From the NCBI GenBank assembly GCA_963665295.1, contig OY762209.1:4416001-4480000 (forward strand): a stretch of 64,000 nt of DNA. The letters are read 5' to 3'. The DNA is from Syntrophorhabdaceae bacterium. GTDB taxonomy: Bacteria > Desulfobacterota > Syntrophorhabdia > Syntrophorhabdales > Syntrophorhabdaceae. The notes beneath the pieces are model-generated. The model made no database searches. It was given only the letters and a program-made list of their open reading frames with translations, and was not told where the DNA came from. Made by a program: the position numbers and the translations under genes. Positions 23,079-36,269 of the stretch are shown here, in pieces. Positions within the stretch are counted from its first letter, which is position 1, and each line of letters begins with the position of its first letter.

Positions 23079-23627
23079 CTACCGGTCCCGGTTCGTCGTT
23101 CCTCTCTCGGAATAGGCCGCGCCTCTTCTCCTGCGGCCCCTCCACCCCTTGATAACATCACGGACCGCCCGAAGGACTCCGGGAAGGGCGGCCTCAACCG
23201 GCCCGGAAAGGTCAAGCCCGTAGTCAATGCTGGCGGGCTCGACACCGATCACGCTTATCTCCGATAGTCTGCTCCTGTCGATCATATGGAGTGCATTGAT
23301 GATAGAGAGTTCGTGGAGAGACGCCGGGATGCCTCCCTCGTCGATATCGTCTCCCACAGCCCTGTAGACTGTACCAGGAACTCCACCCGCTTTCATGGCG
23401 TCGATGAGCAGAATCCTTTCCGCCCACTCCAGGAGGTACATGGCGTCAAAGACCGCGCAGCCCACCTCCGCCACCCGGATGCCGGCTGCGACAGGTCTGC
23501 GAAGCAGCCTCACCGCATGGACCCCCACCCCGTCGTCGCGGAGAAGGAGGTTGCCAAGGCCGGCAACAAGGATCCGTGGTTCCCTTCCTTTTGCCGCTTC
23601 GGCTCGTATCCTTTTCTTCCGTCTCAT
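23079..23627 (-). CDS. Hydrogenase maturation protease (HybD/HycI family)
   Basis: GLGNLLLRDDGVG, IDA, SLHE, GVEP, LS.PV; divergent from the hydrogenase genes. Confidence 0.92.
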   Translation of the reverse strand: MRRKKRIRAEAAKGREPRILVAGLGNLLLRDDGVGVHAVRLLRRPVAAGIRVAEVGCAVFDAMYLLEWAERILLIDAMKAGGVPGTVYRAVGDDIDEGGIPASLHELSIINALHMIDRSRLSEISVIGVEPASIDYGLDLSGPVEAALPGVLRAVRDVIKGWRGRRRRGAAYSERGTTNRDR

Positions 23628-24217
23628 TATATACCCGCCTTCACTCAAGAAAAGGGGCAAGCCGGGACGGCGCGGAGGAATAGGATGTGTCACGACGCCG
23701 TCTGAAAAATGGCATTCATACTTTATACTATAAGAGCTGTCCTCCTGTTGGTAAAGGTAACCGGGAGTCCACCCGGAACAGGTCATATGCATCCCCCCCT
23801 TTTGACTCTGCTTTCGCCATGGCTTATTTAATATACCATACTGAGAAATGGATTTATCCCTTTCGAAGTGTCTACTTTAATTCTGATCTAAAGGAGTCCT
23901 TTCCGATGGAGAAGAGACCAGGTGCCATAGCAATACTGTTGTCAAACCGGGTAAGCGCTTTTCACATCACCTCACTCCTCACCAGTTTCGCGGAACTTGT
24001 TTCAGCGCAGCAGGGCGTTCCTCTGCGCGACAATCAGGTTAATGTTGTCTCTCTCGTCCCCTCAAAGGTGCGCTGCCTTCCGCAGATTCGAAGGGCTATG
24101 GAGGCGAGGCAGGCTCTTGCCAGCCTATCACCATATATATTACTCCTCCATTCATGTTCTAACATCCTGTTTTTATTGTTTTTATATGCTCTTAATATCC
24201 CACTGTTTACAATATAC

Positions 24218-24246
24218 TTGACATGAATTATAATGTACAGTATAAC
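24218..24246 (+). promoter_or_regulatory. Putative sigma-70 promoter of the hydrogenase operon
   Basis: TTGACA-N17-TATAAC in an AT-rich intergenic region. Confidence 0.6.
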
Positions 24247-24414: not shown

Positions 24415-25323
24415 ATGAATAATGTTTCCCGCCGCGACTTTTTGAAGTATTGCGGGTTAGGGGCCGCGGCCCTGGGTCTTAGCATGTCGGATCTGGGACG
24501 CCTTGAAAAGGCCTTTGCAAACCCGACCGGCCCATCGGTGATCTGGCTCCAGGGAACCGGCTGCACCGGATGTTCGGAATCCTTTCTCAACAGGATCTCG
24601 ACTTCCAGCCCCAAGACCGCGGCCGCCGTTCTCGTCGACTCCATCAACCTCGTCTATCACCCTAACCTCATGGGCCCCGCGGGCCAGGAAGCGGTGGCCG
24701 AAGCGGAGGCCGCTTACAACAAAGGAGGGTATGTACTCGCAGTCGAAGGAGGGATTCCCACGGCCTTTGGCGGAGCCGCGTGCATGGCGTGGACATACAA
24801 CAACGTTGAGGTTACTTTCGAACACGCGGTGCGTGACCTTGCGGACCGTGCCGCGGCGATCCTTTGTATTGGAACGTGCGCGTCTTTCGGCGGCATTCCC
24901 GCCGCGCCGCCCAACCCGGCAGGCGTCATGGGAGTCGGGGAACTCACGGGAAGACCTACCATCAATATTGCGGGGTGCCCGACACACCCCGATTGGATCG
25001 TGTGGGCCGTGGTGCAGCTTATACTCGGCAATCCGATCCCCCTTGATTCATCCGGACGCCCCACTCAGTTCTTCAGCAACACGGTGCACAGCCAGTGTCC
25101 GCGCTACGGGACGGAAAAAGCGGAGACTTTCGGAGAGGACTACCACTGTCTCATGGATCTCGGGTGCCGCGGACCCCGGACCATGTCGAACTGCCCCCAG
25201 CAAAGGTGGAATAATCAGGCCAACTGGTGCGTTGACGCCAATGGGCCATGCATAGGGTGTACCGAGCCGACATACCCCGGTACTCAGTCATTCTATACCC
25301 AGGAAGGCAAAGGAGGTACGTAA
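24415..25323 (+). CDS. [NiFe]-hydrogenase small subunit, Tat-exported
   Basis: SRRDFLK Tat motif; CTGC, GTCA, GCP, HSQC...CL..LGC, C...WC...CIGC; no C-terminal anchor. Confidence 0.95.
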   Translation: MNNVSRRDFLKYCGLGAAALGLSMSDLGRLEKAFANPTGPSVIWLQGTGCTGCSESFLNRISTSSPKTAAAVLVDSINLVYHPNLMGPAGQEAVAEAEAAYNKGGYVLAVEGGIPTAFGGAACMAWTYNNVEVTFEHAVRDLADRAAAILCIGTCASFGGIPAAPPNPAGVMGVGELTGRPTINIAGCPTHPDWIVWAVVQLILGNPIPLDSSGRPTQFFSNTVHSQCPRYGTEKAETFGEDYHCLMDLGCRGPRTMSNCPQQRWNNQANWCVDANGPCIGCTEPTYPGTQSFYTQEGKGGT

Positions 25324-26753
25324 TGTCAACAGTCAAGATAGTAGACCCTGTCACACGCCTGGAAGGTCATCTTAAAATAGAGGTCACCATAGACACGGTC
25401 AACAGTACGCAGCAAGTCGTTGATGCACGGGCCACGGGCACCATGTTCCGCGGGTTCGAGCAGATCCTTGTGGGCAGAGCGCCCCAGGATGCTCAGCATA
25501 TCACCCAGAGAATCTGCGGCGTCTGCCCCGTTCCCCACGGCATTGCATCCGTACTTGCCCAGGACAAAGCATTCAAGGTCACTCCTCCCGCCAATGCGAT
25601 CGTTATGCGCAATCTGGTCCTCGGCGCGAATTTTATCCAGTCCCATATACTCCACTTCTATCACCTTGCCCTTCAGGATTATGTGGACGGACCAGCCATG
25701 CCGCCGTGGCAGCCTTCATGGAATGTGGACAAACGCATCAGCGGCACCGGCGCCACAAGCCTGGTGAACAATTACGTGGCGGCCCTCGACATGACAAGGA
25801 AAGCTCACGAGATGGGCGCCCTTTTCGGAGGACGCATGCCCGATCCCGTGGCGTACGTCGCGGGAGGCTTTACTGCAACCCCAAGGCCGGACCGCATTTT
25901 GAAATATCAGTCATACCTGGCCGAATTAATCCCTTTCATCAGGAACACCTATCTTCCCGATGTGACCGGCTTGAGCCAGGCATATCCGGATTATTCGAGT
26001 ATCGGCACCGGATACGGAAACCTTCTTTCTTTTGGGGTCTTCGATCTCGATGCGGCGGGGGCGAACAAGCTCCTGAAGCGCGGGAGATCAGCAGGCGGAT
26101 CGCAGACGGTAAGCTCGGTTGATGTGAATCAGATATCGGAAGCGATCAATCATTCCTGGTATAAGGATTCGTCTTCCAGCCGGAAACCTTCGGCAGGCCA
26201 GACGAATCCCAGTTACCCCAAGACAGGGGCCTATTCATGGCTCAAAGCGCCCCGTTATGGCGGAAAACCCTATGAGGCGGGGCCTCTCGCGCGAATGTGG
26301 GTAAACGGGGATTACCGCCGTGGTATCTCCGTCATGGACCGACATCTGGCCAGGGCCCAGGAGGCTCTAAAAATAGCCGGCGCCCTTCAATCGTGGGTGA
26401 CGCAGCTGCAACCCGGAGGCCCTGTCTATACCGCCCATACACCGGCCGCCACCGCGACCTCGTACGGACTTACCGAAGCGCCTCGGGGCGCGCTGGGACA
26501 CTGGCTCCAGATTGCCGCTGGCAAGATTTCACGTTATCAGATCATTACACCCACATGTTGGAACGCCTCCCCCAGGGACGGCTCAAATAAACCGGGGCCG
26601 ATAGAAAAGGCGCTCGTGGGCACTCCCGTAATCAGCATCGACGAACCCGTTGAAGTTTTGAGGATTATCCATTCCTTCGACCCCTGCCTTTCCTGCGCGG
26701 TCCATGTATCGAGACCCAAAGAAAATGCAAAGGTTCACGTTGTCTACACATAG
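25323..26753 (+). CDS. [NiFe]-hydrogenase large subunit (group 1a-like)
   Basis: DPVTRLEGH, L1 QRICGVCPVPH, EAPRGALGH, L2 FDPCLSCAVH plus a cleavable tail. Starts at the TAATG overlap. Confidence 0.95.
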   Translation: MSTVKIVDPVTRLEGHLKIEVTIDTVNSTQQVVDARATGTMFRGFEQILVGRAPQDAQHITQRICGVCPVPHGIASVLAQDKAFKVTPPANAIVMRNLVLGANFIQSHILHFYHLALQDYVDGPAMPPWQPSWNVDKRISGTGATSLVNNYVAALDMTRKAHEMGALFGGRMPDPVAYVAGGFTATPRPDRILKYQSYLAELIPFIRNTYLPDVTGLSQAYPDYSSIGTGYGNLLSFGVFDLDAAGANKLLKRGRSAGGSQTVSSVDVNQISEAINHSWYKDSSSSRKPSAGQTNPSYPKTGAYSWLKAPRYGGKPYEAGPLARMWVNGDYRRGISVMDRHLARAQEALKIAGALQSWVTQLQPGGPVYTAHTPAATATSYGLTEAPRGALGHWLQIAAGKISRYQIITPTCWNASPRDGSNKPGPIEKALVGTPVISIDEPVEVLRIIHSFDPCLSCAVHVSRPKENAKVHVVYT

Positions 26754-26802
26754 AGCGACAACGGTGGCATGGAGAATTTGCTGCATACGATAAGGAGACA
26801 GA

Positions 26803-28893
26803 ATGAAAAGACGAAAATTAACGACAGTTCTGACCGTGGCCTTTGTGACAATAATTGCAGGGCTGGCTTTCGGCGTAGGTTCCTATCTTACTCAATTCAA
26901 CACCCGTTACGGCACATCGGGCAGCGCTCTCGACTCGTGTAACCTGTGCCATCCAGGCGGCGCTACTTCGCAACTCAACGCCTACGCGAGTGCCTACGTG
27001 AGTGCCGGCCACAATTTTGCCTCTGTCGAGTCCCTGGACTCCGACGGGGACGGCTACACAAACCTCACCGAGATTAACGCGCGTACCAATCCGGGCGACG
27101 CTGCCAGTCATCCGGTCGCGGACGCGACGCCTCCGGTGGTTACGGCCTTCACCATACCCGCCACATCGGGTTCCCTTGTGGTTGCCATCAACAGTTTTAC
27201 CGCGACGGACAACGTAAGCGTAACCGGCTACCTCGTGACAGAGACGGCCCAGAAGCCCCTGGCCGCCGCAGCGGGCTGGACCTCTACACCTCCCGCAAAC
27301 CATACCTTCACCACCGCGGGTGTCAAGACGCTTTACGCATGGGCAAAGGACGCCGCGGGTAATGTCTCTTCCACCACGGTGAGCGCCTCCGTTACCATCA
27401 CCCTTGCCGATGCGACACCCCCCACGGTCACCGCTTTCACGATCCCTGTATCGTCGGCCTCCCTGACCGTGACAATCAGCGCCTTCACCGCTACGGACAA
27501 TGTGGGAGTGACGGGCTACCTTGTGACGGAAACGTCCACAAAGCCCCTTGCTTCCGCGTCGGGATGGAGTGCGACACGGCCGGCAAGTTACGCCTGTACT
27601 TCGGGCGGCGCAAAGACGCTTTACGCATGGGCCAAGGACGCCGCGGGTAATGTCTCCACCGGTGTGGTGAACGCCACTGTCAACATCACGGTTTCCGATA
27701 TGACGCCCCCCCTGATTACGGCTTTTGTCATACCCTCTGCCTCAAGTTCTCTCGTAATCACCATTACCAGCTTTACCGCAACGGACAACGTGGGAGTGAC
27801 GGGCTATCTCTTGACCACAACCTCTACGCCACCTTCGCCTACCGGCGCGGGCTGGACCGCAACGCCACCGGGAAGCTATACCTTTGTTTCTACGGGAGTG
27901 AAAACGCTTTACGCATGGGCCAAGGACGCTGCGGGTAATGTCTCCACCGGTGTGAGCCAGACCGTCAGCATCGTATCCGGCGACACCATACCACCGAACA
28001 TCACCAACTTCTCCCTTACCCCTTCGGCCGAGACGTTAAAGGTGCCTGTAGTCGCGTTCACCGCAACGGACGACGTGGCCGTTACGGGTTATATGCTTAC
28101 AGAGACCGCAAAAACTCCTCTTCCCACGGCAGCCGGCTGGAGCACCACTCCTCCCGCAAGCTACACCTTCACCTCGGAAGGACTCAAGGCACTTTACGCC
28201 TGGGCCAAGGACGCCGCGGGGAATGTATCGTTGCCGTGGAGCGACATGGTGGACATCGTGGTTACGGACGTTACGCCTCCCGACGTGATGGACTTCAGCC
28301 TCCGCAGCCCCAGTGATTCCCTTATCGTACCTATTACCGGCTTCACTGCCATAGACGACGTGGAAGTCACAGGCTATCTCGTAACGAAGAGTGCGTCGCG
28401 GCCAAAAGCGAATGCGGCCGGATGGAGCGCAAGCCCCCCGACCAGCTACACCTTCCCTCTTCATACGACGGGCACCAAAACCCTCTATGGCTGGGCAAAA
28501 GATGCCGCGGGGAATGTGTCCGATGGTCTTTCGGAACAGGTAGTCATCCAGATCGATGATCGTACTCCGCCGACGGTAACGGAGTTCAGGATACCTTCGT
28601 CATCGAGCAGCCTGACTGTCAGGCTCAGGACCTTCACCGCCACGGATAACAAGGTGATTGCAGGCTATATGGTAACCACGTCGTCCGCAAAACCGTCATG
28701 GTCGTCGCCCAAGTGGAACGCCGCTCCTCCCGCGAGCTTCACGTTTACGTCCCAGGGGACAAAAACACTCTACCCCTGGGTCAGGGACGCCGCGGGGAAT
28801 GTGTCCGGCAAATTTGTGGGCGCCGCCATGAAGGTCCGCATCTCTCTCGACCCTGAAGAAGAGGACAGGAACGAGCACGGCGATGACGATTAA
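26803..28893 (+). CDS. Secreted protein with one CxxCH heme c motif, a Ca-binding DxDxDG motif and six Ig-like repeats
   Basis: Signal peptide; CNLCH at 26938-26952; DSDGDGYTNLTE; repeats ending AWAKDAAGNVS. Confidence 0.85.
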   Translation: MKRRKLTTVLTVAFVTIIAGLAFGVGSYLTQFNTRYGTSGSALDSCNLCHPGGATSQLNAYASAYVSAGHNFASVESLDSDGDGYTNLTEINARTNPGDAASHPVADATPPVVTAFTIPATSGSLVVAINSFTATDNVSVTGYLVTETAQKPLAAAAGWTSTPPANHTFTTAGVKTLYAWAKDAAGNVSSTTVSASVTITLADATPPTVTAFTIPVSSASLTVTISAFTATDNVGVTGYLVTETSTKPLASASGWSATRPASYACTSGGAKTLYAWAKDAAGNVSTGVVNATVNITVSDMTPPLITAFVIPSASSSLVITITSFTATDNVGVTGYLLTTTSTPPSPTGAGWTATPPGSYTFVSTGVKTLYAWAKDAAGNVSTGVSQTVSIVSGDTIPPNITNFSLTPSAETLKVPVVAFTATDDVAVTGYMLTETAKTPLPTAAGWSTTPPASYTFTSEGLKALYAWAKDAAGNVSLPWSDMVDIVVTDVTPPDVMDFSLRSPSDSLIVPITGFTAIDDVEVTGYLVTKSASRPKANAAGWSASPPTSYTFPLHTTGTKTLYGWAKDAAGNVSDGLSEQVVIQIDDRTPPTVTEFRIPSSSSSLTVRLRTFTATDNKVIAGYMVTTSSAKPSWSSPKWNAAPPASFTFTSQGTKTLYPWVRDAAGNVSGKFVGAAMKVRISLDPEEEDRNEHGDDD
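27121..28850 (+). repeat. Six tandem coding repeats of about 95 aa (about 288 nt)
   Basis: DxTPP...FTATDN.GVTGY.VT...W...PP.SYTF...KTLYAWAKDAAGNVS six times; DNA core GGCCAAGGACGCCGCGGG(T/G)AATGT. Confidence 0.95.
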
Positions 28894-33212: not shown

Positions 33213-33956
33213 ATGATCAGCAGCATCGGCAGCAACAGCAGTTCACTCTATGAGTACCTAATGCAGTTGAGGGCGTCCGGTTCATCAACGTCATCAACGT
33301 CATCCACATCAACGACGGACGATCTTTTCAGCAAGATCGATACGAGCGGAGACGGGACGGTAAGCGAAGACGAGTTCAACACGTTCCGGTCGGAAATGGA
33401 AGCCCAGTTTAAGAACTCCGTAATGACATCGAAGTACGATTCCACGGGAGCCGCCACCTCAACCGACGATCTTTTCAGTAAGGTCGACTCGGACGGGGAC
33501 GGCACGGTAAGCGAAGACGAGTTCGGTATGTTCCGGTCGGCCATGGAATCCCACGGAGCTCCTCCTCCACCGCCGCCGCCGGACTCTTCGGCCTCATCCT
33601 CGTCAAGTTCGTCCATCGACGACCTTTTCGGCAAGATCGATACGGATGGGGACGGCACGGTAAGCGAGGACGAGTTCGGCACCTTCCTCGCCGGCATGGA
33701 GGCTGCAATTGAAAACGTCCTGCTTCAGGGTCAGGACAGTACAAGCATCGATTCCGACACATCCGTCGGCAGCACCGCCGAAGCCGCTTCGTCGGCAACA
33801 AGCGTCAGTACGGCCGCAACAGATTCAACGTCGGACCAGACGGACGGCGCAAGCCTTTTCGCGTCCCTTATTATGGAAGCAATAACCAAGTATATGACCT
33901 TCTCGCAGCCGCAGCAGGGTTCAACGTCTACAGGTCAGATAAGTGTAGCGGCTTAA
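33213..33956 (+). CDS. Ser/Thr-rich EF-hand calcium-binding protein (three EF-hand loops)
   Basis: DTSGDGTVSEDE, DSDGDGTVSEDE, DTDGDGTVSEDE; poly-Pro linker; AGGAGG SD. Confidence 0.88.
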   Translation: MISSIGSNSSSLYEYLMQLRASGSSTSSTSSTSTTDDLFSKIDTSGDGTVSEDEFNTFRSEMEAQFKNSVMTSKYDSTGAATSTDDLFSKVDSDGDGTVSEDEFGMFRSAMESHGAPPPPPPPDSSASSSSSSSIDDLFGKIDTDGDGTVSEDEFGTFLAGMEAAIENVLLQGQDSTSIDSDTSVGSTAEAASSATSVSTAATDSTSDQTDGASLFASLIMEAITKYMTFSQPQQGSTSTGQISVAA

Positions 33957-34577: not shown

Positions 34578-35294
34578 TTACTCCTTTTCCACGGGAAAAG
34601 TCAGACTCGCGCCAAACCACCCGATGACCGAGACCATAGCGGACAAGGAAAATACCAGTATGAGGTAGATTCCGCTCGAAAACCTCAGGTCCAGAAGAAT
34701 ATCGGGGACTGCGACGCGCCACACAAGGACGACAATGTTGACACCCAGGAGGGCCATTGAAAGCCGTTGTTTGATGGCTACGGGTCTCATGGGCCTTGCC
34801 CTATAGTTGAGCCACCATGTGTAGTAGCCTGTGGCCATAGCTACGGGAGTGAAGGCAAGCCCTGCCCCGAGGCAATTCAAAGCTGTCACTTCGAAACCCG
34901 GGACACGGGTGAACAGGAAAAGTAAAGTAAACAGGCCGGCGGAAAACATAAACACGATGGGGAAGTGGACCGTCATGGGGTGCGGATGACGTTTCAATAC
35001 GGGATATTGCCTAAGCAGTCTTGACAGCGAAGGGGGGACCTGTCTCTCACTTTCCTGTCCCTTTTTCAAAGTGCCCACTTGCGGGTACCGATCGAGCATC
35101 TCAGGCCCGTGGGGAGCCGCGGAAATGTCCGCGGTCAGGTCAGCGCCCCCATGGTGACGCTGCATATGGAAACCACCGGTCCACAGACGGCTGCCACTCA
35201 CGTCAAAGACCCTATTCCCGTGGGCCACGTACACAGGCTTTCCGTTCTTACCGTCGGCTTCCGCAAGCTCCTCAGGAGTGATTTCTTTCATCAA
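34578..35294 (-). CDS. Cytochrome b5-like domain fused to a DUF2231-like membrane domain
   Basis: DGKNG.PVYVA...VFDVS.S.LW.GG.H...H..G.DLT...APHG; HP..VHFP. Confidence 0.82.
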   Translation of the reverse strand: MMKEITPEELAEADGKNGKPVYVAHGNRVFDVSGSRLWTGGFHMQRHHGGADLTADISAAPHGPEMLDRYPQVGTLKKGQESERQVPPSLSRLLRQYPVLKRHPHPMTVHFPIVFMFSAGLFTLLFLFTRVPGFEVTALNCLGAGLAFTPVAMATGYYTWWLNYRARPMRPVAIKQRLSMALLGVNIVVLVWRVAVPDILLDLRFSSGIYLILVFSLSAMVSVIGWFGASLTFPVEKE

Positions 35295-35315: not shown

Positions 35316-36269
35316 TCAGACCATGACCCTGATGACTGCCGCGGCAAGCAGAACGGCAGGGTAATAGCTGGCCCTGTTAAAAAGGTACAAGGCCCGGCAC
35401 CGGGCCCCCTCCTTTAGAAGGCGATACGCGGGCACTATGAGGAGATAGATCCCTGTGGCCAGCGACGCGCCAGTGTAAAAGACACGTCCCCCCTCATCCC
35501 GGCTGAAACCGGCGAGGACCCCGCTCAGAACCACGGTCATGAGAAGGCACGCAAAAACCATTGAAGCAGCGTGCGACGGCCTGAAGCATACCGGAATCGT
35601 TTTCGCCCGCATCGATCGGTCTTCCTCGATGTCGGTCCAGTCGGCAGGAATGTTCTGGCCGCCTATTTCCCAGAAAAAGAGCCACAGAAACAACATGACC
35701 AGAAATGTTATGGAGGGGTGGTGGTCCACTGCAAAAACCGCGGCTACGCCACCGGAAGTCTTCACCGCCCCGCTTACGAGGGTCCTCAGACAACTCGTTC
35801 TCCACATGAGACAATATGCCCCTTCGAGAAGACAGGCTACCACAAAAATAACGACACAGACCGGATTCAGAAGGTAGGCGCCTATAAGAGCGACGAATGT
35901 CCACGCTAATGCCCACGCCAACGCCTCCTTGAAGCTAAGAAGGTTGTAGGCCATGGGGTGCCGGACCAGGACGGCATCCAGATAGTCTTCTGTATCCTGA
36001 AATCCCCCTTGATCCCGCTTGAGTTTGTCCACACGATAGTCCATCAGGTCGTTCAGAGCATAGACTGCCGTATAACCCGCAAAGGCTGTTATGAAGCCCA
36101 ACAACACAGTTCTCAGAGGAGGGAACGCCCCGTACCAGAGCAGGGCCGCAAGGGCAGGCGTAGCCATATCCAGCAAACCATGAGGGGTTCTTGAAAGGGC
36201 AAAGAAAAGTCCTATGTGAGACAGGACCGAGTGATGTCTCTCTAAAGGCACTACGTTCACGATTCTCAC
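35316..36269 (-). CDS. UbiA prenyltransferase family protein
   Basis: NDLMDYRVD...HP and DWTDIEED...TIP aspartate motifs; TM helices. Confidence 0.88.
   Translation of the reverse strand: MRIVNVVPLERHHSVLSHIGLFFALSRTPHGLLDMATPALAALLWYGAFPPLRTVLLGFITAFAGYTAVYALNDLMDYRVDKLKRDQGGFQDTEDYLDAVLVRHPMAYNLLSFKEALAWALAWTFVALIGAYLLNPVCVVIFVVACLLEGAYCLMWRTSCLRTLVSGAVKTSGGVAAVFAVDHHPSITFLVMLFLWLFFWEIGGQNIPADWTDIEEDRSMRAKTIPVCFRPSHAASMVFACLLMTVVLSGVLAGFSRDEGGRVFYTGASLATGIYLLIVPAYRLLKEGARCRALYLFNRASYYPAVLLAAAVIRVMV

Follow-up and report, generated by a model that had tools for sequence, protein, structure and literature searches.

A putative heme-headed protein on an immunoglobulin-like stalk encoded beside a periplasmic [NiFe] hydrogenase of Syntrophorhabdaceae

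In a 64,000-nt stretch of contig OY762209.1 from a Syntrophorhabdaceae bacterium (the window; all coordinates are positions in it, and labels beginning with G, L, and P denote genomes, loci, and proteins), we analyzed the gene that follows hydS and hydL, which code for the small and large subunits of a predicted [NiFe] hydrogenase. Its product, P0001, consists of a signal peptide, a small head with one CxxCH motif, six immunoglobulin (Ig)-like repeats, and an acidic tail. It probably represents a type of hydrogenase accessory protein that is new. Genes of this kind accompany the hydrogenase outside the genome of the window as well, and this linkage is recurrent but not universal. Proteins that combine the head, 3–8 repeats, and an acidic tail form a subgroup whose gene is a facultative accessory in a single clade of the soluble, periplasmic [NiFe] hydrogenases of group 1, and P0001 belongs to it by its slot after hydL, its strand, its head, its repeats, and its D/E-rich C-terminus. 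We see about an even chance that P0001 is a clade-specific accessory cytochrome, in which electrons pass between the heme head and the distal cluster of HydS, with the rod of repeats and the tail keeping the head in position. No description of a member of the head family, or of such a hydrogenase companion, was found in the literature searched at the level of titles and abstracts, in agreement with the initial annotation of this DNA, which knew of no hydrogenase with a partner of this kind.

Linkage of the gene to the hydrogenase

HydS-HydL can be assigned to the periplasmic group-1 [NiFe] hydrogenases, and there to the [NiFeSe]-like clade, by its twin-arginine translocation (Tat) signal, its motifs, and the maturation protease. 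HydS matches the Pfam models Oxidored_q6 and NiFe_hyd_SSU_C and reaches 223 bits against NCBIfam TIGR00391 (cut-off 179.5). HydL contains the motifs RICGVCPVPH and DPCLSCAVH, the latter with Cys in place of selenocysteine, as well as an extension of 15 amino acids (aa); its best NCBIfam model is NF033181 ([NiFeSe]-type large subunit), for which the score of 576 bits falls just short of the 600-bit cut-off. The start codon of hydL (ATG, 25323) and the stop codon of hydS overlap (TAATG), and HydL orthologues align starting at residue 26 of the longer open reading frame (ORF).

The P0001 gene lies close behind hydL (Table 1). A consensus scan of the spacer between them gave neither a promoter-like nor a terminator-like site. 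Downstream of the gene, the 131-nt region around a hairpin folds with z = -4.4, and none of 200 shuffled sequences folded as well; the hairpin was not listed by the terminator scan and may mark where the transcription unit ends. The P0001 ORF (GC content 0.588, and 0.673 at third codon positions) is similar to hydS and hydL in composition, and a recent foreign origin of the gene was rejected on this ground. The initial annotation had described the 49-nt distance from hydL, the hairpin, and the whole layout of the protein (signal peptide, CNLCH head, six repeats, and acidic tail), all of which we found again. Its view that the slot after hydL is usually held by a cytochrome b or c3 gene was not borne out, as orthologous operons have a HycI-type maturation protease there. 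The HycI of the window is 46–64% identical to the proteases encoded 3′ of hydL in G108, G019, G125, and G158.

The linkage was traced from the hydrogenase side. Searches with HydL gave 13 matches at E ≤ 1e-120 in 401 genomes of the phylum and six matches at E ≤ 1e-150 in 21 genomes of the order of G389. We counted operons with a HydL at least 54% identical to that of the window and with the downstream DNA inspected (n = 16), and in six of them a gene for a protein with head, repeats, and acidic tail follows hydS-hydL(-hycI): the window, the metagenome locus L156 (HydL 56% identical to that of the window), G389 and G204 (both 72%), G434 (70%), and G435 (72%). G389, G204, and G434 belong to one genus and G435 to a second genus of the same family; altogether, the linked operons span at least four genus-level lineages, with the same slot and the same orientation. 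At L156, the order is a sigma-54 activator, HydS, HydL, HycI, and then an 885-aa protein with the head, eight repeats, and a tail ending in NDDDDEEDD. Nine genomes have both the hydrogenase clade and the head, and three of their 14 head genes occupy the post-hydrogenase slot, compared with a chance expectation of ~0.003 by our own arithmetic, which assumes about one gene per kb.

The linked proteins also have a C-terminal signature. All six end in D/E residues, the tails being ...NEHGDDD in the window, ...DDEEDD in L156, ...DDEEEEDD in G435, ...NNQEEDD in G434, ...NDHGGDD in G389, and ...GGGGEDG in G204, and only two of 85 other complete family proteins have at least five D/E among their last 15 residues.

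A more distant operon, that of G236 (HydL 46% identical; L252:5507-8890, minus strand), has two other genes after hydL. One encodes P0193, a 199-aa protein with one CxxCH that is unrelated to the head protein, and the other P0194, a 908-aa protein of the MtrC/MtrF type with CarboxypepD_reg domains and nine CxxCH motifs.

The head, its family, and the repeats

The head of P0001 most likely carries one heme c, attached covalently to C46 and C49 and with H50 as its proximal ligand, as well as one Ca2+, held by an EF-hand-like loop (D79–E90), the spacing of which corresponds, in our own reading, to the canonical 12-residue EF-hand loop. It has only two cysteines, both within CxxCH. The P0001 ORF has hundreds of homologues and is thus more than a chance reading frame. 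A word-indexed search with residues 1–120 returned 47 proteins, 46 of which have CxxCH, the exception being truncated at its N-terminus. An exhaustive phmmer search with residues 22–109 returned 1,522 representatives at E ≤ 1e-3 (537 at E ≤ 1e-10), and the best 150 of these included 144 new proteins, 141 of which have CxxCH, the other three matching the Ca loop only. Among 43 aligned heads, CxxCH is kept in every one, and F32, Y36, C46, C49, H50, D79, S80, D81, D83, E90, I91, and P97 are invariant. The motif that the initial annotation took for a heme site is thus conserved in three sets of relatives, and the head defines a large, uncharacterized family of at least 1,500 sequence clusters.

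Known profiles place the head only at a distance. It scores 15.6 bits (E = 0.023, cut-off 27) against Pfam Temptin_C (PF24784), with the stretch from CxxCH through DSDGDG aligned to profile positions ~27–75, and the whole protein gave no match to this model at E ≤ 0.01. We know of no function for bacterial Temptin_C members. Against TSP3_bac, the head scores 18.9 bits (cut-off 25), and against NCBIfam NF041762 (GEGP motif-containing diheme protein) 56.4 bits (cut-off 300), where P0001 residues 41–114 align to profile positions 46–131 and the remaining profile is unmatched. Unlike this diheme protein, P0001 has one CxxCH, whereas its distant relatives P0045–P0047 have two before the Ca loop. 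At best, the head would be a divergent relative of Temptin_C and NF041762. An AlphaFold2 model of the head alone has four helices, with a predicted local distance difference test score (pLDDT) of 89.5 and a predicted template modeling score of 0.80. Foldseek found no match to this model in the PDB at E ≤ 10, the best Z with VIA-align was 2.1 (48,161 chains), and the head profile had no match among PDB sequences at E ≤ 10. Matches to a small, helical apo-model may simply be difficult to obtain, and we do not claim a different or new fold.

In family proteins, the head stands nearly always right behind the signal peptide. In homologues of P0001, the signal peptides have AXA-type sites in the same place, directly followed by a conserved SYL..F...Y stretch; Tat export of P0001 was rejected, as its relatives lack the RR motif. 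A Pfam analysis of 118 members revealed highly diverse regions C-terminal to the head, including Big_5, PKD, FN3, TIG, FG-GAP, DUF4214, SLH, cohesin/dockerin, GH26, MopE motifs, PGF-CTERM, a T9SS sorting tail, and multiheme cytochrome domains. In many members, the C-terminus is formed by a hydrophobic helix and an Arg-rich tail, and cell-surface sorting signals are present in relatives of P0001; one member, P0099, matches Pfam PGF-CTERM, and others end in GGGC...helix...RRR. Several different C-terminal sorting systems appear to handle head-bearing proteins. Short stand-alone heads (L201, L190, L202, and P0099) end in SPGFEAI, a helix, and a basic tail, a PGF-CTERM-like arrangement. Four further proteins (P0002, P0048, P0049, and P0050) consist of 4–9 tandem heads ~80 aa apart, each with one CxxCH and one DxDGDG loop, and would amount to "multi-monoheme" proteins.

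Some members of the family lie beside genes for porin-cytochrome conduits. Genes for an MtrB/PioB-type porin and an MtrA-like decaheme cytochrome adjoin head genes in four of 19 genome loci, and MtrA- and/or MtrB-like neighbors were found in eight of 80 metagenome head loci. Head genes adjacent to MtrAB lie at L051, L043, L020, L078, L159, L162, L171, L188, L210, and L229, and the proteins at L043, L020, and L159 have C-terminal membrane helices and an Arg-rich tail. At L051 (10001-16403), genes for a head protein, a head-repeat protein, MtrA, and MtrB follow each other on a single strand, an arrangement that resembles mtrCAB. MtrC and OmcA are the outer-surface cytochromes of MtrCAB conduits. 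Other members of the head family hold the mtrC position near MtrA/MtrB, some of them with MtrC-like multiheme domains, whereas P0001 has a single heme site and mostly non-redox Ig-like domains. From this association with MtrAB in other members, the head could be a unit that serves envelope redox machines generally, for docking and electron exchange; this is the boldest of our readings, and a long shot.

The six repeats of P0001 (aa 106-201, 202-297, 298-392, 393-487, 488-584, and 585-680) are 42–69% identical in pairwise comparisons, and repeat families in the DNA of the gene are spaced 285–291 nt apart. In an AlphaFold2 model of the head with repeat 1, built from an alignment of 21 sequences, this repeat forms a beta sandwich with pLDDT >90. 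Foldseek matched it to the PKD domain of ColH (4jgu, E = 1.6e-4) and to 6aem (6.3e-4), with 3pe9 and the FN3 structure 1k85 also among the matches. With phmmer, the repeats match the FN3 domain of chitinase A1 (1k85) at E = 0.024, and the motifs TDNVGVTGY and AKDAAGNVS are common to both. By this modeled FN3/PKD fold and these motifs, the repeats are classed as ordinary Ig-like spacer domains of the kind seen in bacterial FN3/PKD spacers such as 1k85 and 4jgu, but they do not match the Pfam fn3 or PKD sequence models and, unlike those spacers, form a stalk under a putative heme head.

Possible roles of the accessory protein

In the reading that we favor, the P0001 gene would be transcribed together with hydSL, and its product would be exported and receive its heme from the system II machinery of the genome. 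The head would then dock near the distal Fe-S cluster of HydS and exchange electrons with it, in the manner of cytochrome c3 in Desulfovibrio, and the rod and tail would give the head, and thereby the enzyme, a fixed position in the envelope. Co-transcription is suggested by the short spacer with its ribosome-binding site, the promoter-like site before hydS, the hairpin after the P0001 gene, and the similar GC content. A c-type cytochrome is indicated by the conserved CxxCH together with the export signal and the maturation genes of the genome, and the tandem head arrays, multiheme fusions, and MtrAB neighbors of the family also point to heme.

The genome of the window encodes system II cytochrome c biogenesis proteins (ResB, 228 bits; CcsA-type, 187 and 169 bits), many c-type cytochromes, several of them multiheme, and a tetraheme cytochrome c3 (PF02085, 58 bits). 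Heme attachment would therefore be feasible, and a textbook hydrogenase partner is available. The c3 gene (C1:2704495-2704875) directly adjoins the ResB/CcsA genes, outside the window (G000:C1:2702414-2704875 for the whole group). The genome has one copy of the head, and a search of it for MtrB/PioB gave no match.

Periplasmic hydrogenases are thought to pass electrons to cytochrome c3 or to a membrane cytochrome b, and the type I tetraheme cytochrome c3 (class III, PF02085) is the periplasmic partner of [NiFe] and [NiFeSe] hydrogenases in Desulfovibrio. As a hydrogenase partner, P0001 would work most like c3: it is predicted to be Sec-exported, and the distal cluster of a soluble periplasmic group-1 hydrogenase is the proposed site at which it would accept electrons. 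However, P0001 falls outside class III by every test of membership. It has one CxxCH instead of four, and neither the whole protein at E ≤ 0.01 nor the head at E ≤ 10 matched PF02085; it differs further in its Ca loop, its six-domain rod, its acidic tail, and its gene beside the hydrogenase.

Several observations count against the favored reading. The gene is missing from 10 of the 16 operons (G108, G437, G322, G019, G331, G158, G125, G200, G430, and G374, the last with downstream DNA limited to 1.7 kb), including the closest one, that of G108 (HydL 76% identical). Also among them is that of G019, from the same family, which has hydS-hydL-hycI without the gene and two head genes on other contigs. 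Therefore, the hydrogenase works without the accessory protein, and since c3 is available in the genome of the window, P0001 would be an addition to it, not a replacement. The linked genes of G389 and G204 are frame-broken in the assemblies; the breaks of G389 lie at poly-C runs, which suggests assembly error. The linked lineages may share one origin, so that the cases are not fully independent; in a quick and poorly resolved tree of 106 heads (87 columns), they fall in three places. Furthermore, a single heme on a ~20-nm non-redox rod cannot be a conduit by itself, and a role in interspecies transfer is pure conjecture.

The heme site itself also raises a difficulty. The initial annotation had seen no obvious second axial ligand, and indeed the 43 aligned heads contain no invariant His or Met for the sixth position, where the only candidate side chains are those of Y36 (invariant) and of Y28 and Y61 (near-invariant). 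Because of this lack, the sixth ligand would be absent, a Tyr, or supplied by a partner. One may speculate that a His/Tyr or five-coordinate heme would tend toward low potentials, in keeping with the H2 couple.

Instead of exchanging electrons with the enzyme, P0001 could be a tether or scaffold that positions the soluble hydrogenase in the envelope, with a heme that is structural or serves in docking or sensing, off the main electron path. Either the head or the acidic tail would attach to the enzyme or to a basic cytochrome, while the opposite end would bind to the outer membrane or wall. This seems unlikely to us, although it has several points in its favor: the number of repeats in the rod differs among linked relatives (~3–4 to 8), much like in spacers and adhesins; an acidic tail marks the linked subgroup; other members of the family have anchored, non-redox tails (Big_5, PKD, FG-GAP, SLH, cohesin/dockerin, and GH26) and C-terminal sorting signals; and a c3 partner is already encoded in the genome. 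By contrast, the invariant CxxCH, the tandem head arrays, and the multiheme fusions point to redox use, and Pfam and NCBIfam scans of P0001 itself gave no recognizable anchoring motif.

The gene distribution also bears on whether P0001 is a functionally unrelated, adhesin-like surface protein whose gene just happens, in some lineages, to come last in the hydrogenase operon. Fusion partners and gene context vary freely within the family, and the view from the head is less favorable to linkage than that from the hydrogenase. In a survey of the best 80 of 382 relatives of the whole protein, on contigs from one genome per species, 78 loci were fetched and 19 had the head; HydS, HydL, HycI, and HypA were absent within ~10 kb of all 19. 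When metagenomes were scanned with the head alignment, 80 loci were obtained, just 23 of them at least 8 kb long, and a hydrogenase lies within 10 kb in one of the 80, L156, many contigs being short. In G430, a head gene lies ~25 kb from the hydrogenase, with unrelated genes between. The head is found in eight of 40 relatives of the window's genome, and among these 40 the hydrogenase is present at high identity only in G019 (65%), which is also the only one of 24 same-family genomes to have it; in the same genus, G001 and G003 have no head, and G002 gave a weak match only. The locus of the window is, moreover, rearranged, because the genes for ECH and SSF, which precede hydS in G019, are downstream here, and hycI, which comes after hydL in every orthologous operon with a protease, is inverted upstream. 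On the 19 head loci, the linkage had looked incidental, an interpretation overturned by the searches from the hydrogenase side. The synteny of the head with hydrogenases, which the initial annotation had proposed as a check, thus holds in six of the 16 hydrogenase operons but not when viewed from the homologues. An unrelated protein fits poorly with a slot and orientation that recur in at least four genus-level lineages, at HydL identities down to 56%, and with a tail signature common to linked proteins and rare elsewhere in the family, and we regard it as quite unlikely.

Another question is whether the head binds heme at all, since it resembles Temptin_C, whose animal members hold disulfides instead of heme. 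The head would then be a temptin-like Ca2+-binding domain, with CxxC as a disulfide or metal site. Several relatives of the head pass the Temptin_C model (for example P0163, 31 bits, and P0128, 31.8 bits), the Atlas neighbors are bacterial "Temptin C-terminal domain-containing" clusters, and the sixth ligand is not conserved. Animal temptin is a pheromone-type protein with two disulfide bonds (PMC2762978). However, the two long-range disulfides of temptin cannot form in a head with only two cysteines, CxxC is invariably followed by His, associations with multiheme cytochromes and MtrAB occur in the family, and the host has heme-attachment machinery. We consider a heme-free head improbable, the least probable of the readings weighed here.

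A more far-reaching version of the electron-transfer reading is a long shot. The head would be a new class of single-heme, Ca2+-stabilized "electron plug" of universal use at the tip of stalked envelope proteins, docking on MtrA-type porin cytochromes in some bacteria and on HydS in these syntroph-like ones, and in the hydrogenase-linked form the stalk and tail would bring hydrogenase electrons to or past the outer cell face.

Features of the window and significance

The features of the P0001 locus and of its surroundings are collected in Table 1. The long ORF of hycI overlaps an ORF on the other strand with a weak match to TM1266 (ACT-type regulator). About 4 kb 3′ of the P0001 gene, a protein of 247 aa is encoded in which canonical EF-hand motifs occur several times (EF-hand_7, 4e-19), which is unusual in a bacterium. 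Further downstream, one gene encodes a fusion of a cytochrome b5-like heme-binding domain with a DUF2231 membrane domain, and a UbiA prenyltransferase gene adjoins it.

Table 1 Positions of the P0001 gene, its parts, and other features in the 64,000-nt window
Feature	Position	Strand	Remarks
HycI-type hydrogenase maturation protease	23079..23792	-	Pfam HycI 3e-12; upstream of hydS
ORF overlapping hycI	23687-24226	+	weak TM1266-like match
Promoter-like site ahead of hydS	24206..24234	+	TTTACA-17-TATAAT, 11/12 matches; consensus scan, pattern match only
hydS, [NiFe] hydrogenase small subunit	24415..25323	+	twin-arginine signal SRRDFLK; no C-terminal membrane helix
hydL, large subunit, [NiFeSe]-like clade	25323..26753	+	Pfam NiFeSe_Hases 1.9e-120
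Spacer between hydL and P0001 gene	26754..26802	+	49 nt; AAGGAG at 26792-26797, five bases 5′ of ATG
Accessory gene ORF (P0001)	26803-28893	+	696 aa
Predicted Sec-type signal peptide	26803..26874	+	aa 1-24; probable cleavage after A22-F23-G24 (AFG/V), read by eye
Head module	26875..27117	+	aa 25-105 (~80 aa); putative c-type heme site and EF-hand-like loop
Putative heme site of head	26938-26952	+	CNLCH (C46-N-L-C49-H50)
EF-hand-like loop of head	27037-27072	+	12 residues, D79 to E90, DSDGDGYTNLTE
Six tandem Ig-like repeats	27118..28842	+	PKD/FN3-type beta sandwich, 95-97 aa each
Acidic C-terminal tail and stop codon	28843..28893	+	SLDPEEEDRNEHGDDD
Hairpin 3′ of P0001 gene	28975..29007	+	14-bp G+C-rich stem, 5-nt loop, no U-tract
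EF-hand protein	33213-33956	+	
Cytochrome b5-like/DUF2231 protein	34578-35294	-	
UbiA prenyltransferase	35316-36269		

From a biological perspective, a clade of hydrogenases repeatedly has an unlike companion, a protein with a putative one-heme head on an Ig-like rod. As the head is small and confidently modeled, it should be easy to express and to test. If the electron plug were true, it would open a hydrogenase-fed path of direct electron exchange with partners or minerals, alongside H2 diffusion. If P0001 is a redox partner or a tether of the hydrogenase, it would change the picture of H2 electron flow in syntrophic Thermodesulfobacteriota and would provide the first functional handle on a family of heme-headed surface proteins.

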